From: Sphingomonadales bacterium
GTDB lineage: Bacteria; Pseudomonadota; Alphaproteobacteria; Sphingomonadales; Sphingomonadaceae
Assembly: GCA_038228865.1 (NCBI GenBank)
Contig: JBBROX010000001.1
Span: 368,657 to 432,656 of the forward strand
Length of the DNA: 64,000 bases
Direction of reading: 5' to 3'
In this document: piece after piece, positions 3,046 through 56,096 of the stretch
How the letters are laid out: each line of letters opens with the position of its first letter
Numbering within the stretch: position 1 is the stretch's first letter
Translations under genes and position numbers: made by a program
Notes under the pieces: generated by a model
What the model was told of the DNA's origin: nothing
What the model saw: only the letters and a program-made list of their open reading frames with translations
The model's database searches: none

Positions 3046-3476
3046 GCACGCGTCGTTGCGCAGTCAAGGCGCCCAGTTCGGCGGGGTTTACGCTCCTGGA
3101 GTTGCTTGTCACCATCGGCGTCATGGGCCTCATCGCCGGTATCGGATTTGCCGCAATCGACCGTGCAATGGCGGCGCAGGCCTTTCGGACCGCAACGCTC
3201 CAGATCGATCGTTCGGTACGCACTGCGCATGCAGATGCGATCCGCGAAAATCGAACAATCGTCGTTGCGCCGTTCGTTTCCCGCGACCCACGCGCGGCCG
3301 TTGCGACGGCCTCCGGTCCGTTTGCAACCGAGATCCGGATCGAGCAATCCGCCGCCATCCGATTCTTCAGCGATGGCACATCGACAGGTGGCACAATTCG
3401 CGTCTCGTCCGGCCGACGCCGTTTCGAGATTGCCATAGATCCCACCACCGGCGTCATCGCGTCGGGCGCGGCATGA
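3042..3476 (+). CDS. gspH: Minor pseudopilin, GspH/FimT-like
   Basis: Type IV prepilin cleavage motif AG|FTLLELLV; C-terminal IRFFSDGTSTGG typical of GspH; 4-bp overlap with gspF. Confidence 0.8.
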   Translation: MSTRRCAVKAPSSAGFTLLELLVTIGVMGLIAGIGFAAIDRAMAAQAFRTATLQIDRSVRTAHADAIRENRTIVVAPFVSRDPRAAVATASGPFATEIRIEQSAAIRFFSDGTSTGGTIRVSSGRRRFEIAIDPTTGVIASGAA

Positions 3477-51492: not shown

Positions 51493-52037
51493 GGGCGCTG
51501 GGCTCTGCTGGCCCGCCACTGGGCGGCGGTTTGGCCCCAGGCATCGACACGCGCGTCCTGAAACGGATCGGGCAATCGCGTCGGCCCGCTATTGGTCGAT
51601 CCCAGACGCTGCGCCAGCGCAATCGACCGGGTGTTCTCGGGGTCGATGGTGTGGATCACTTCGCTCCAACCCAGTATGTCGAACGCATAATCCATCGTGG
51701 CGACGACCGCTTCATAGGCATAGCCCTTGCCAGCAAACTGCGGCGCAACGCCCCAGCCGATTTCCTTCGCCGGCCAGCCCTCGGGTTCCCACGGACCGAG
51801 CCTCCCGACCCATGCACCGGTGGAGCGCTCGATCACCGAGAACATTGCAAAGCCCTTGATGTCCCAGGCTCCGCGCATCGAACATAGCATGCGCCACGTT
51901 TCCGGACGTGACTGTACGCCGCCGATAAAGCGCATCGTCTCCGCATCTGCACTCATCACCGACCAGCCGTCCAAATCCGACGCTTCGGGCAGGCGCAGGA
52001 TCAAGCGCTCGGTGAACAGGATCGGCGCGCCAGTCAC
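51489..52037 (-). CDS. GNAT family N-acetyltransferase (RimJ/RimL-like)
   Basis: [15 protein letters not shown]...[21 protein letters not shown]. Confidence 0.85.
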
Positions 52038-52453
52038 CCGAAGCGTCCCTTCAGCTCCAGCAATGCAAGTGCGGCCTTCGCGGCTTCGCCGCCCTTGTCC
52101 TTCTGGGCCGGGTCCGCCCGAACGAGCGCCTGTGCTTCGTTCTCCACGGTCAAGATGCCGTTGCCGATGGCGATGCCGTCCATCGTCAGCGCCATGATGC
52201 CGCGCGCGCTTTCGCCCGCGACGATTTCGAAATGATAGGTCTCGCCGCGAATGACGACGCCGATCCCGACATAGCCGTCATAGCGCCCGCTTTCCGCCGC
52301 TAGCGAAATTGCGCCGGGAATCTCAAGCGCGCCGGGTACGGTGATCACCTCGACGTGATGCCCCGCGTCCTCCAGCGCCGCACGCGCGCCCGCGATCAGC
52401 ATGTCGTTCAGATGGTCGTAGAACCGTGCTTCGACGATCAGGAATTTGGCCAT
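52034..52453 (-). CDS. ribH: 6,7-dimethyl-8-ribityllumazine synthase
   Basis: [30 protein letters not shown]. Confidence 0.96.
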
Positions 52454-53754
52454 TATTCGCCCTTCGTACCGGGGATGGGACGCTCGCCGACGATCGACAG
52501 GCCATAGCCCTCGAGTCCGACCAGCGTGTGGTGCGTGTTGCTCAAAAGGATCATGTCGTGGACGCCGAGTTCGGTCAGGATCTGCGCCCCTACGCCATAG
52601 TCGCGCAATTCCTCAACCTCGGGCGCGCCCGCACTTTTGCCTTCGGCGCGCAACTGGATGAAACGGCTGATCATGTCCTGCCGCCGCCGGTTGATGACGA
52701 CAATGACGCCCGACCCTTGCTCGGCAATGGCCTCCATCGATCCCGACAAAAGCCCCGATCGCTCATTCAGCTCGCCAAATGTATCGACGAACATCGACAT
52801 CGTGTGCATGCGCACCAGCGTGGGCCTACCGGGGTCGATCCGTCCCTTTTGCAACGCGAGTGTCTCGTCGCCCGTTGCCTTGTTGAAGAAGGTGATCGCC
52901 TTCCACTCGCCGCCCCAGCGTGACTGGAACACCATCTCGGCGCGCTTTTCGACAAGGTGGTCGTGTTTGCGGCGATAGGCGATCAGGTCACGGATCGTTC
53001 CCATCTTCAGCCCGTGCAGCCGCGCGAACGACACCAGATCGTCCATGCGCGCCATCGTGCCGTCGTCCTTCATGATCTCGCAGATCACGCTCGACGGATT
53101 GAGGCCAGCTAACCGGGAGATATCGACGCCCGCTTCGGTATGCCCTGCGCGGACCAGGACGCCGCCATCGCGCGCGATCAGGGGAAAGACATGTCCGGGG
53201 GTAACGATGTCGTCGCGGCCCTTGCTGGCATCGATCGCCACCGACACGGTGCGCGCACGATCACCCGCCGAAATCCCGGTGGTTACGCCTTCGCGTGCCT
53301 CGATCGACGTCGTGAAAGCGGTTTCGTGGCGCGTCCCGTTGGCGCGGCTCATCAGGTCCAGACCGAGTTGTTCGACGCGTGCCTTGGTCAGCGTCAGGCA
53401 GATTAGGCCGCGTCCGTGCGTCGCCATGAAATTGATCGCGTCGGGCGTCGCCATCTGTGCCGGGATAATCAGGTCGCCCTCGTTCTCGCGATCCTCGTCG
53501 TCCACAAGGATGAACATGCGACCGTTGCGAGCTTCTTCGATGATCTCCTCGATCGGGACCAGCGTCGGGGCATCGTCGTTGCTGAATAGGAATGTTTCCA
53601 GTTTTCGCAATGTATCGGCGGTCGGGTTCCAGCTTCCGTCCTCCAGATCGCGCAAGGTGTTGGCGTGGAGGCCGGCGGCGCGCGCAAGGCCCGATCGCGA
53701 CATGCCACCCTCTGTCACGAGGCGGCGGACTTTTTGGATAAGGTCAGTGCTCAT
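52453..53754 (-). CDS. ribB: Xre-type HTH fused to DHBP synthase (RibB) and a degenerate GTP cyclohydrolase II-like domain
   Basis: N-terminal [33 protein letters not shown]; RibB motifs [39 protein letters not shown]; RibA-like tail LVRMH...[11 protein letters not shown] without Zn-binding Cys. Confidence 0.92.
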
Positions 53755-53764
53755 AATCACTCAT

Positions 53765-53784
53765 AATCACATTGAAATGTGATT
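53765..53784. promoter_or_regulatory. Perfect palindrome AATCACATT-GA-AATGTGATT, candidate operator for the HTH-RibB operon
   Basis: 9-bp inverted repeat with a 2-bp spacer, 10 bp upstream of the ribB ATG; overlaps a TCATAATCAC tandem duplication (53751-53770). Confidence 0.65.
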
Positions 53785-53883
53785 GTCCATATCGAAGGTA
53801 CAGTAGAATGTAGGTCGCAAAGGCGCACTTTGTTTCGGCCATGCACTTGGCGTCCGTCCGCACCCGCGATAGAAGCGAATAAT

Positions 53884-53907
53884 ACTGTATTGCAAGACTA
53901 ATACAGT
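53884..53907. promoter_or_regulatory. Inverted repeat ACTGTATT-N8-AATACAGT in the ribB/pcm divergent region
   Basis: Perfect 8-bp arms; 18 bp upstream of the pcm GTG. Confidence 0.4.
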
Positions 53908-53925
53908 TGTGCGAAACACGCGAGA

Positions 53926-54594
53926 GTGAGCAAGCCGACGATGCCATCCACCGCCGAAGCGACTGCCGACTCCGCCGCGATGCGTCGGGCGATGGTCATC
54001 AGCCAGTTGCGACCGAACAACGTCACCGATGTGCGGCTGCTTTCGGCGATGGAGCGAATCGCCCGCGAGCCGTTCCTGCCCGCCGAACGCCGGGCGGTCG
54101 CCTATACCGATCGTGCGGTGCCGCTGGGCAACGGCCGGGCGCTCAACCCGCCGCTTACCACGGGGCTGCTGCTCGATGCCGCCGAGATTGGGCCGAGCGA
54201 TCGTGTGCTGATTGTCGGCGCGGCGACGGGTTATGCGGCGGCCATCGCCCAGACGCTTGCCGGTCAAGTCGTTGCCGTCGAATCCGACCCGGCGCTGGCC
54301 GATGAAGCGCGTCGCAATGTGCCTGACCTCGATCTGGTGGTAGGCCCCTTGAATCTAGGGGCAACCGGCATGTTCGACGCCATCGTCATCGACGGGGCGA
54401 TTGAATCGGTTCCCGATGCACTCGTTGCCCAGCTGAGCCTGACCGGTCGGCTGACCTGTGCGATCAATGCTGGCGGCGTTGCGCGGCTTGCCGTCGGTCG
54501 GCGGGGCGGCACGGGTTTCGCGCTGTCGGAGTTCGTCGACTCTGAGGCCGTAACGCTGCCCGGCTTTGCGCCCGCCAAGGAATTCGTCTTTTGA
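53926..54594 (+). CDS. pcm: Protein-L-isoaspartate O-methyltransferase-like protein
   Basis: MVISQLRPNNV, AREPFLP, VLIVGAATGY, FDAIVIDGA; precedes tolC. Confidence 0.82.
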   Translation: MSKPTMPSTAEATADSAAMRRAMVISQLRPNNVTDVRLLSAMERIAREPFLPAERRAVAYTDRAVPLGNGRALNPPLTTGLLLDAAEIGPSDRVLIVGAATGYAAAIAQTLAGQVVAVESDPALADEARRNVPDLDLVVGPLNLGATGMFDAIVIDGAIESVPDALVAQLSLTGRLTCAINAGGVARLAVGRRGGTGFALSEFVDSEAVTLPGFAPAKEFVF

Positions 54595-56096
54595 AAGCGA
54601 TCAACGCGTTTCGCGAAGGTAGAATGGATATGAGTCAGCGTCGCCGCCTGATTGCTGCGGTTTTGCTTGCGACTAGTGCCTCGACGGCATCCGCCCCCTT
54701 GTCTGCGGAAACCCTGCGCGAGGCACTGGTCAAGGCGTACCAGACAAATCCGACGATCACTGGTGCCCGCGCCGGGCAGCGCGCAACCGACGAAAATGTG
54801 CCGATTGCCCGCGCGCGCGGCTTGCCGGGCGTGAGCGTCTCCTCTTCGTACAACGAATATGTGGAGGTCGCAGCCAACAGCTTTCTGGCGCCGGCACGTC
54901 AGCTGTCGGCGACGGCGAATGTCTCAATCCCGATCTATCAGGGCGGCGCTGTGCACAATGCCACGCGCGCCGCAGAGACGCGCGTCGTTGCCGGTCAAGA
55001 AGGGGTGCGCGACACCGAGGCGAGCGTCTTTTCGCAGGTAGTCGCCGCCTACATGAACGTCATCCGCGATTCGGCGATCGTGTCACTGAACCAGAAGCAG
55101 GTCGGCGTCTTGCGCGTGAACCTTGAGGCGTCGCGCGACAGGTTTCAGATCGGCGATCTGACCCGCACGGATGTTGCCCAGTCCGAGTCGCGTCTTGCCC
55201 TTGCGCAGGGACAGCTGGAACAGGCCCAGTCGAACCTGATCGCCAGCAAGGAGAATTATATCCAGCTGGTCGGCGAAGCGCCGGTTGCGTTGGAGCCGCC
55301 GCCGCCGTTGCCAAATCTGCCGGGATCCGCCGACATGGCGACCGCCGTCGCGATCGACGCGAACCCGGGCCTTGCAGCGGCGAAAAGTCGGCGTCTGGCC
55401 AGTACCTATGACGTGAAGAGCGCGCGTGCGAGCCGGTTGCCGAAGCTCTCGGCGGTCGGGCAGGAGAGCTACAGCGACTATCTGGGCTCGCTCGGATCGC
55501 TCGGAACGGGCGCAAGCGCGTCCGCCCAGACTGCGCGCAGCACCACCGTCGGCCTGCAGGCGACGATCCCCATCTTCCAGGGCGGCGGCCCCGGCGCGCA
55601 GGTCCGTCAGGCGCAGGCACTCGAATCGCAGTCGATCGAAAGCGTGACCGCAACCGAGCGCAGTATCATCGCGCAGACACGCTCCGCCTATGCGGCTTGG
55701 CAGGCCTCGAACGAGCTGATTGTCAGTTCCGAAGCCGCCGTGGCCGCCAGTTCGCTGTCGCTGGAGGGCGTCCGCGCCGAAAACAGCGTCGGGACTCGGT
55801 CGATCCTCGACATCCTCAATGCCGAGCAGGAACTGCTCAACGCGCAGGTCAATCTGGTGACGGCGCGACGTAACGCCTATGTCGCCGGCTTCTCGCTGCT
55901 GGCGGCGATGGGGAAGGCCGGGGTCAAGGATCTGGGGCTCGAGGGCGGGCCGTTCTACGATCCGCAAGTCAACTATCGCCGCGTTCGCCGTAGCATCAAC
56001 GACTGGGCGAACGACCCCAAGCCTGCGCCGGTCGCTACCCGCACCGTTGACACCAAGGCGCAAACACCGGCATTGATTGGCCCTACGGTTAACTAG
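54591..56096 (+). CDS. tolC: TolC family outer membrane protein
   Basis: ETLREALVKAYQTNP, IPIYQGG, GDLTRTDV.Q, GTRSILDILNAEQEL. True start may be 54624 or 54630. Confidence 0.93.
   Translation: MKAINAFREGRMDMSQRRRLIAAVLLATSASTASAPLSAETLREALVKAYQTNPTITGARAGQRATDENVPIARARGLPGVSVSSSYNEYVEVAANSFLAPARQLSATANVSIPIYQGGAVHNATRAAETRVVAGQEGVRDTEASVFSQVVAAYMNVIRDSAIVSLNQKQVGVLRVNLEASRDRFQIGDLTRTDVAQSESRLALAQGQLEQAQSNLIASKENYIQLVGEAPVALEPPPPLPNLPGSADMATAVAIDANPGLAAAKSRRLASTYDVKSARASRLPKLSAVGQESYSDYLGSLGSLGTGASASAQTARSTTVGLQATIPIFQGGGPGAQVRQAQALESQSIESVTATERSIIAQTRSAYAAWQASNELIVSSEAAVAASSLSLEGVRAENSVGTRSILDILNAEQELLNAQVNLVTARRNAYVAGFSLLAAMGKAGVKDLGLEGGPFYDPQVNYRRVRRSINDWANDPKPAPVATRTVDTKAQTPALIGPTVN

Follow-up and report, generated by a model that had tools for sequence, protein, structure and literature searches.

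What a perfect palindrome does immediately before the start codon of a riboflavin-pathway gene, when the encoded enzyme carries a DNA-binding domain of its own, is the question raised by ribBX in a 64,000-nucleotide stretch of DNA (hereafter the window) from a Sphingomonadales bacterium of the family Sphingomonadaceae (GenBank assembly GCA_038228865.1, contig JBBROX010000001.1, positions 368,657 to 432,656). The product of the gene, HTH-RibBX, combines an N-terminal helix-turn-helix (HTH) domain of the XRE type with 3,4-dihydroxy-2-butanone-4-phosphate (DHBP) synthase, RibB, and a pseudo-RibA domain. The analysis presented here suggests that the palindrome is probably the operator of this HTH, which is fused to the only DHBP synthase of the genome, and that it lies inside the gene's own promoter, where it would serve to autorepress the operon. 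The features on which the argument turns are listed below in window coordinates, with signed positions counted from the A of the ATG as +1.

52453-53754, minus strand: XRE-HTH::RibB::pseudo-RibA gene (HTH-RibBX, 433 amino acids), identified from its Pfam domains, with start codon ATG at 53754-53752
53765-53784, minus strand: putative operator O1, a perfect 20-bp palindrome AATCACATT-TC-AATGTGATT, identified by repeat search and by conservation in relatives
53784-53776 and 53773-53765, minus strand: the O1 parts AATCACATT and AATGTGATT, with TC between them and ATGA after the second
53782-53767, minus strand: conserved core TCACATTTCAATGTGA, at -28..-13 relative to the ATG

On the gene strand (minus), the region upstream of ribBX reads ATGGACAATCACATTTCAATGTGATTATGAGTGATTATGAGCACT, and a longer stretch of it runs CTTCGAT ATGGACAATCACATTTCAATGTGATTATGAGTGATT ATG AGC ACT GAC. 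The palindrome that an earlier note on this DNA had described at the ribB start is real; repeat search placed it at 53765-53784, with arms of 9 nt each that are 100% complementary and separated by a 2-nt gap. A chance origin was set aside because the 20-mer pattern with at most three mismatches is expected 0.01 times per window, because the core TCACA-N6-TGTGA occurs a single time in the 3.26-Mb genome, the whole of which holds no second good copy (at most one mismatch), and because O1 scored 34.3 bits with a matrix built from relatives, against 14.0 bits for the next best site in the 3.26 Mb.

The evidence that ties this site to the HTH comes from relatives. We compared 151 Sphingomonadaceae genomes from about 105 genera, of which 114 have a full-length match including the HTH (G182 was counted among them after reassignment) and 37 do not. 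Upstream regions, searched within 300 nt of the gene, were compared for 100 fused genes and 45 unfused ribBA genes. All of the fused genes carried TCACA-N6-TGTGA upstream with at most two mismatches, the match being exact in 77, with one mismatch in 21 and with two in the remaining 2; by contrast, none of the 45 unfused genes had the core with at most one mismatch, and their best upstream matches differed from it at 2-5 positions. The palindrome therefore tracks the fusion (98/100 versus 0/45 at one mismatch or fewer), and its absence from orthologous promoters, which the earlier note had named as evidence to the contrary, was not what we found. At the level of sequence, this comparison strongly supports the note's proposal that the palindrome is the operator of the fused HTH. 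A scan of whole genomes for exact TCACAY-N4-RTGTGA, regardless of location, revealed the site in 88 of 114 fused genomes versus 2 of 37 unfused ones; it usually occurs once per genome and adjoins ribBX wherever coordinates were listed, and the reversed control pattern had matches in 2 genomes. The same distinction was seen within the genus of the window. The unfused congeners G005 and G008 have no exact site, and their one-mismatch matches numbered 4 versus 4 for the control and 2 versus 0, respectively; the fused congeners G016 and G019 have one exact site each, at ribBX. The association of operator and fusion was consistent at every depth examined.

Fusions were found in Altererythrobacter, Alteraurantiacibacter, Novosphingobium, Blastomonas, Polymorphobacter, Sphingopyxis, and Pelagerythrobacter, while Sphingomonas jeddahensis and S. 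leidyi carry an unfused gene. The fusions among 80 named loci were confined to Sphingomonadaceae genera, and a search with this HTH in 400 alphaproteobacterial genomes found no sequence-similar HTH-RibB fusion outside the family. Apparent N-terminal matches in G337, G550, G417, G421, G196, and G310 were rejected because they lack an HTH and are either non-coding frames or read-through into ribE. Two groups of loci are of interest in their own right. The unfused loci of G008 and G005 (L013 and L015) lack the HTH and have ribBA directly after ribE, and their enzyme part is 81-82% identical to that of the window, versus 71-73% in many fused congeners, which suggests a recent loss of an HTH-promoter module or a gene replacement. 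The loci of Novosphingobium sp. AAP83 and B1 (L161 and L181) have a promoter-spacer copy with a decayed left arm, the strong palindrome being an upstream one beyond the -35 element, and their HTH has LHPN in place of LHAN; joint drift of operator and recognition helix is possible in this lineage.

The position of the palindrome relative to the promoter was examined with a family logo built from loci anchored on the core, from which the following elements were predicted.

53784-53789, minus strand: putative -35 hexamer TGGACA at -35..-30, placed by the family logo and overlapping the first A of the palindrome
53760-53766, minus strand: putative -10 region, read as TTATGA at -12..-7 or as TATGAG at -11..-6

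In the logo, the positions 7-5 nt before the core are T (0.64), T (0.79), and G (0.51), an A stands at -1 relative to the core, and the two bases after the core, at -12/-11, are T (0.66) and A (0.71). Many relatives have TTGACA or TTGACG at the -35 position. The arrangement is that of TTGnnn at -35..-30 and the core at -28..-13, so that the 16-mer fills a 17-bp spacer, and the TG of the core (53769-53768) falls at the position expected for the TGn of an extended -10 element. The family logo shows no conserved T at -7; only 30-43% of alphaproteobacterial promoters have a T there (PMC7703639). Counted from the first T of the core, an in-frame start codon follows at 26-30 nt in 77 of the 100 loci, with a mode of 28 that is also the spacing in the window, and it is ATG in 75 of these 77. 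Because this 28-nt spacing is the family norm, we took ATG 53754 as the start codon rather than GTG 53760, which an extension in the list of open reading frames (ORFs) would have given. Shine-Dalgarno-like 4-mers were present in 7 of the 77 short-class loci versus 11 of the 23 long-leader loci. In the window, the ATG follows 12 nt after the core with no Shine-Dalgarno sequence, and the predicted -35 and -10 elements stand at canonical distances from its A, as in promoters of leaderless transcripts that begin with AUG. This geometry indicates that transcription most likely starts at, or within one base of, the A of the ATG, and that the ribBX-ribH mRNA is probably leaderless.

The protein has the parts that such an arrangement would need. 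Its HTH_3 match covers residues 10-56 and reached 24.0 bits against a cut-off of 23, marginally above the threshold. DHBP_synthase matched at 273.9 bits over profile positions 1-191 of 191 within a single ORF without stops, and GTP_cyclohydro2 matched at 117.4 bits. The reading frame thus predicts a single polypeptide in which a DNA-binding domain is fused to a pathway enzyme that appears intact, and this is the sole RibB of the genome. The RibA-like domain (window 52453-52990) lacks both the three cysteines of the Cys-x10-Cys-x-Cys zinc site and the QEGRGIG motif; a true RibA with zinc cysteines and QEGRGIG is encoded on contig 5 (G000:C5:132576-133064, in a 358-aa open frame). Because the zinc cysteines and QEGRGIG are missing and a separate true ribA is present, we assigned the enzyme part to the RibBX type. 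An AlphaFold model of residues 1-75 had a predicted local distance difference test (pLDDT) score of 77.7 overall and 85-90 over residues 11-60. Foldseek against the PDB returned nearly exclusively XRE-type proteins among the top 50, including HipB, C.BclI, C.AhdI, C.Esp1396I, SinR, DdrO, and HigA, with probabilities of 0.9-1.0 (0.95-1.0 for HipB, C.BclI, C.AhdI, SinR, and DdrO) and a template modelling (TM) score of about 0.54, consistent with an all-helical XRE fold; in the unrelaxed model the recognition helix was not assigned as helical by DSSP. The closest PDB sequences to the HTH are likewise DdrO and other XRE regulators. The alignment shows little or no variation in the presumed recognition segment of 11 residues and in WNPT, in parallel with the invariant operator. 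HipB, C.BclI, C.AhdI, SinR, and DdrO act as dimers on inverted-repeat operators, mostly in their own promoters, and DHBP synthase is a homodimer. Dimerization of the enzyme itself would supply the HTH dimer, and the strict co-occurrence of the domain with TCACA-N6-TGTGA is indirect evidence that such a dimer may bind the inverted repeat.

We propose the following mechanism. A sigma-70-type promoter of the gene itself would have its 17-bp spacer filled by the 16-bp core TCACAT-N4-ATGTGA, in the predicted order -35 TGGACA, one base, the core, and -10 TTATGA/TATGAG, and the right arm would provide the TG of the extended -10 element. A dimer of HTH-RibBX, with one HTH on each half-site, would exclude RNA polymerase; an operator in the promoter spacer is a classic position for a repressor that acts in this manner, and repression rather than activation is proposed here. 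The bound dimer would repress the ribBX-ribH(-GNAT) operon, amounting to negative autoregulation of committed riboflavin enzymes. Modulation of binding by a ligand such as flavin, ribulose-5-phosphate, or guanosine triphosphate (GTP), through the enzyme or X domains, is conjectural, and the cysteine-less RibA-like domain is a candidate sensor.

Several points weigh against this proposal. Neither hexamer in the window is perfect, the -35 reading TGGACA and the -10 reading TTATGA or TATGAG with no T at -7, and a scan with an E. coli-type promoter model found 0 sites at the ribBX start, a result judged uninformative for alphaproteobacterial -10 elements and ascribed to the lack of a T at -7 that is usual in Alphaproteobacteria. 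The HTH_3 score is only just above its cut-off, and HTH_31 (25.3 bits) remained under its own cut-off of 27. The Foldseek E-values for the HTH are weak (0.15) because the domain is short. The exact core is absent from 26 of the 114 fused genomes, although the fetched loci show one-mismatch versions. Finally, the compared genomes are kin, so that the counts are not independent events and association statistics overstate the case, and the association could partly reflect co-inheritance of an inserted module consisting of promoter plus HTH.

Other explanations of the palindrome were weighed against the same evidence. The TGTGA and TCACA sequences resemble the half-sites of CRP, and the tie between HTH and site rests on comparison; the palindrome might then be bound by a separate, unfused regulator, either global and of the CRP/FNR type or dedicated, with the fused HTH employed otherwise. 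The CRP consensus, however, has its half-sites in the order TGTGA-N6-TCACA, which is the opposite of the TCACA-N6-TGTGA found here, and a global regulator would have many sites rather than one strong site per genome. The site is also lost whenever the HTH is absent, even within one genus, and we regard a separate regulator as very unlikely. Since ribE lies directly upstream in many relatives, read-through RNA could include the repeat, whose role might then be that of a hairpin in RNA rather than of a site in DNA: an attenuator, or a terminator or processing site separating ribE from ribBX. Such a hairpin would have a loop of only 2 nt in the window, with no T-run after the palindrome; there was no match to an Rfam family at the leader, and in this genome ribE is on another contig. 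No terminator-like call was made at the palindrome, the two calls obtained being at 53711-53729 (plus strand), within the coding region. No compensatory changes occur in the arms, which are invariant, and the pairs that do vary (5/10 and 6/9) are independent of each other in their two positions (Fisher p = 0.16 and 0.57). Invariant arms and independent variable pairs argue for a DNA site with two protein-contacted half-sites rather than a stem, leaving the hairpin with a probability close to negligible. The weaker alternative offered in the earlier note was translational control by two small upstream open reading frames (uORFs), both of which are present as it described:

53767-53790, minus strand: uORF MDNHISM-stop, with its ATG in the -35 region and its stop formed by the TGA of the right operator arm; probably untranscribed
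53744-53764, minus strand: out-of-frame uORF MSDYEH-stop, with its ATG in the -10 region, upstream of the predicted 5' end

According to this alternative, the 7-codon uORF and the out-of-frame ATG would modulate translation of ribBX, and the existence of both frames in the window speaks for it. Because the geometry of the -35 element and operator puts the mRNA start at the main ATG, however, both uORF starts would lie upstream of the 5' end and outside the transcript, and no Shine-Dalgarno sequence precedes either of them. Neither start codon is present in relatives, which have TTGACN at -35 and varied -10 sequences; that of MDNHISM exists because TGGACA is preceded by an A here. Translational control was therefore rejected as extremely unlikely.

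The earlier note had further proposed that a third, helically phased half-site, created by a 10-bp duplication, allows cooperative binding over the start site. The sequences concerned, together with an upstream site that emerged from the comparison, are as follows.

53755-53760, minus strand: genome-specific third half-site, GTGATT, spanning -6..-1 and set exactly 10 bp beyond the right arm
53750-53769, plus strand: exact 10-bp tandem repeat CTCATAATCA x2, found by repeat search and the source of both the third half-site and the out-of-frame ATG
53798-53813, minus strand: degenerate auxiliary operator O2 (putative), CTACATTCTACTGTAC, at the position of the relatives' (tcaca-N6-)ATGTGA

GTGATT is indeed present at 53760-53755, 10 bp beyond the right arm, as part of the 10-bp repeat. 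Under this explanation, three half-sites would be bound cooperatively and would cover the starts of both transcription and translation. GTGATT repeats the right-arm hexamer exactly at a distance of one helical turn (10 bp), and with the upstream auxiliary half-site degenerate in the window a compensating contact is conceivable. Fold relatives occupy more than one operator in solved complexes, to judge from the entry titles for the C.Esp1396I tetramer (3clc) and HipB on O1-O2 (e.g. 4yg1). On the other hand, a lone half-site that is a direct repeat of the right arm fits a symmetric dimer poorly, and its bases double as the discriminator region of the promoter. The site is also not conserved: any GTGA between operator and ATG was found in 3 of 77 relatives and GTGATT in none of them, and the nearest relatives (L034 and L008, with 84% and 83% protein identity) lack it. 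The repeat itself is mostly dictated by the right arm of the operator, the TAT of the -10 region, and the ATG-AGC start, leaving only the six bases at -6..-1 as free coincidence, at roughly 1 in 4096; these could stem from a templated mutation or be a selected extra contact. The spacing between operator and ATG has kept its canonical 28 nt, which makes a simple recent insertion of 10 bp unlikely. At most, cooperative binding over the start site would be peculiar to this genome, and a functional third half-site is unlikely even here.

The general idea of a helically phased auxiliary half-site fared better, although not its downstream location. In 60 of 77 loci, an auxiliary ATGTGA (at most one mismatch) begins 20-23 bp ahead of the O1 core, just beyond the -35 element. 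The TGTGA of this half-site is separated from the left arm by about 20-21 bp, or two turns, and from the right arm by 31-32 bp, or three turns; a minority of loci have a full second palindrome here. The best ATGTGA match of the window within the auxiliary search range has three mismatches, and L008 has a similar weak copy, CACATTACGCTGT. The third GTGATT may be a weak extra contact where the upstream half-site has decayed, or a mutational accident.

With the palindrome read as the operator of the fused HTH, the extent of its control depends on the genes that follow ribBX and on any further copies of the site. The downstream genes are as follows.

52034-52453, minus strand: ribH (lumazine synthase; DMRL_synthase 141.8 bits), whose start overlaps the ribBX stop codon
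51489-52037, minus strand: GNAT acetyltransferase gene (Acetyltransf_3 110.1 bits), overlapping the end of ribH

The overlap with the ribBX stop codon marks ribH as the predicted second gene of the controlled operon, and the GNAT gene is possibly the third, judging from its overlap. The divergent upstream gene of ribBX is pcm. The earlier note had suggested that operator copies be sought at ribD, ribE, and ribA, and no site was found there in the genome of the window, neither at ribD-ribE nor at the true ribA, both of which are on contig 5. As there is a single strong site and ribD-ribE and ribA have none, control appears to be local here, covering ribBX-ribH and perhaps the GNAT gene. One relative differs in this respect. 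In L245 (G066:C2), two perfect operators are present at 1001-1016 and 3291-3306, one of them at ribBX; the second, 2.3 kb upstream of that one, occupies the spacer in front of a 126-aa membrane ORF and the ribD-ribE genes behind it, and another TGTGAT begins 8 bp beyond its right-arm TGTGA. This arrangement suggests that the regulon can extend to ribD-ribE and fits a riboflavin regulon.

In genomes with two exact matches, the second was mostly within unrelated coding regions in a chance-like manner, with GC-rich spacers. The 16-mer at 1001-1016 of L246 (G152:C21), TCACATCACAATGTGA, is identical to the ribBX operator of that genome and lies in a prophage-like setting, across the 3' end of an HNH-endonuclease-like ORF and about 130 nt before a terminase-like ORF; it may be due to chance or be a phage site recognized by the same HTH. 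In L240 (G117:C3), an exact operator-like 16-mer at 1001-1016 lies within the 3' end of ribBX, 119 nt before ribH, and could be an internal control point or chance. A different palindrome, ACTGTATT-N8-AATACAGT, was noted at window 53884-53907, 19 nt before the GTG of pcm. The genome contains a family of such pcm-type palindromes with 2-4 mismatches, which lie a short way (8 nt to a few dozen) upstream of start codons; the genes concerned encode a PBP1A-like transglycosylase, an M48/HtpX-like peptidase, a CPBP-type protease, a TetR protein, a lipoprotein, and others. Four sites with at most two mismatches were found versus about 0.1 expected by chance, and L008 has kept a related repeat at the same place near pcm. 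This looks like a separate regulon motif, perhaps of envelope-related genes.

No match to any Rfam family, including the flavin mononucleotide (FMN) riboswitch RF00050, was obtained down to E = 1 in 52000-55000 of the window. RF00050 was found in 0 of 150 Sphingomonadaceae genomes, fused or unfused, and was detected in 7 control genomes; unfused lineages such as Sphingomonas proper are likewise without a detected FMN riboswitch. It is possible, although we hold the idea only tentatively, that most Sphingomonadaceae use HTH-RibBX in place of the FMN riboswitch, as a metabolite-sensing 'trigger enzyme' whose X domain or RibB active site would sense flavin, GTP, or ribulose-5-phosphate and switch the HTH on or off its single operator. 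The enzyme would in that case monitor its pathway, repress the leaderless mRNA that encodes it, and thereby set the riboflavin supply; the move of the auxiliary half-site from its usual upstream location to -6..-1 in this genome would then reflect operator rewiring after a rearrangement split ribBX from ribE.

The proposed system has features in common with several known ones. RbkR of Archaea joins riboflavin kinase to a winged HTH (Rodionova et al. 2017, PMC5397151), and HTH-RibBX resembles it as a riboflavin-pathway enzyme with an N-terminal DNA-binding domain. RbkR controls riboflavin genes via palindromic sites where riboswitches are lacking (PMC5397151). The two differ in that the enzyme here is DHBP synthase/RibBX and not riboflavin kinase, the DNA-binding fold is XRE/Cro and not a winged helix, and the host is a member of the Bacteria and not of the Archaea; unlike RbkR, HTH-RibBX is predicted to act on little more than a single promoter in each genome. 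Among bacterial proteins, BirA, NadR, and PutA (PMC5397151) combine enzyme and repressor; as proposed here for HTH-RibBX, each is a competent catalyst that also represses its own pathway or operon via a fused N-terminal DNA-binding domain. None of them is a riboflavin enzyme, and their DNA binding is coupled to substrate, product, or redox state, a coupling that is a conjecture in HTH-RibBX. The conserved operator expected of an enzyme-repressor in its own or its pathway's promoter is found at a fixed promoter position in 98 of the 100 fused loci.

In fold and sequence, the best matches of the N-terminal domain are C.AhdI, C.BclI, C.Esp1396I, HipB, SinR, and DdrO. XRE/Cro-C1 autoregulators are dimers whose targets are inverted repeats within the promoters of their own genes, and a weaker second operator often lies close by, which resembles O1 with its auxiliary O2 half-site; they are small stand-alone regulators or antitoxins, whereas the HTH here is fused to a metabolic enzyme of roughly 370 residues. 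The portion of PMC10012899 available to us (citing Brutinel et al. 2013) describes RibBX as a functional RibB joined to a domain that resembles GTP cyclohydrolase II but is inactive, and the enzyme part of HTH-RibBX is of the same type. That portion mentions no DNA-binding domain on RibBX proteins, and relative to these the N-terminal HTH and the operator appear to be an addition. The FMN riboswitch (RFN element, RF00050) has an equivalent regulatory position elsewhere in bacteria, at ribB and rib operons responding to flavin supply, but is an RNA leader and not a protein with a DNA site. Riboflavin genes are a classic example of riboswitch control, and to our knowledge protein regulators of the pathway are few, comprising RbkR in Archaea and RibR in Bacillus. 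A literature search, which did not extend to the original RibBX paper, found no description of an HTH-fused RibB or RibBX regulator or of its operator.

The function of the X domain has been open since RibBX was described, as stated in the available portion of PMC10012899 (citing Brutinel 2013), and the domain now gains a candidate role as the sensor for a fused HTH. The operator is predicted for about 100 genera, and repressor and operator would form an orthogonal pair for use in sphingomonads of interest for bioremediation and lignin valorization. With one invariant operator per genome and a compact, probably leaderless promoter, the locus would be a minimal case of an enzyme serving as its own transcription factor. 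Collectively, these observations suggest that a whole bacterial family without a detected FMN riboswitch appears to control the committed enzyme of riboflavin synthesis via an HTH fused to the enzyme itself.

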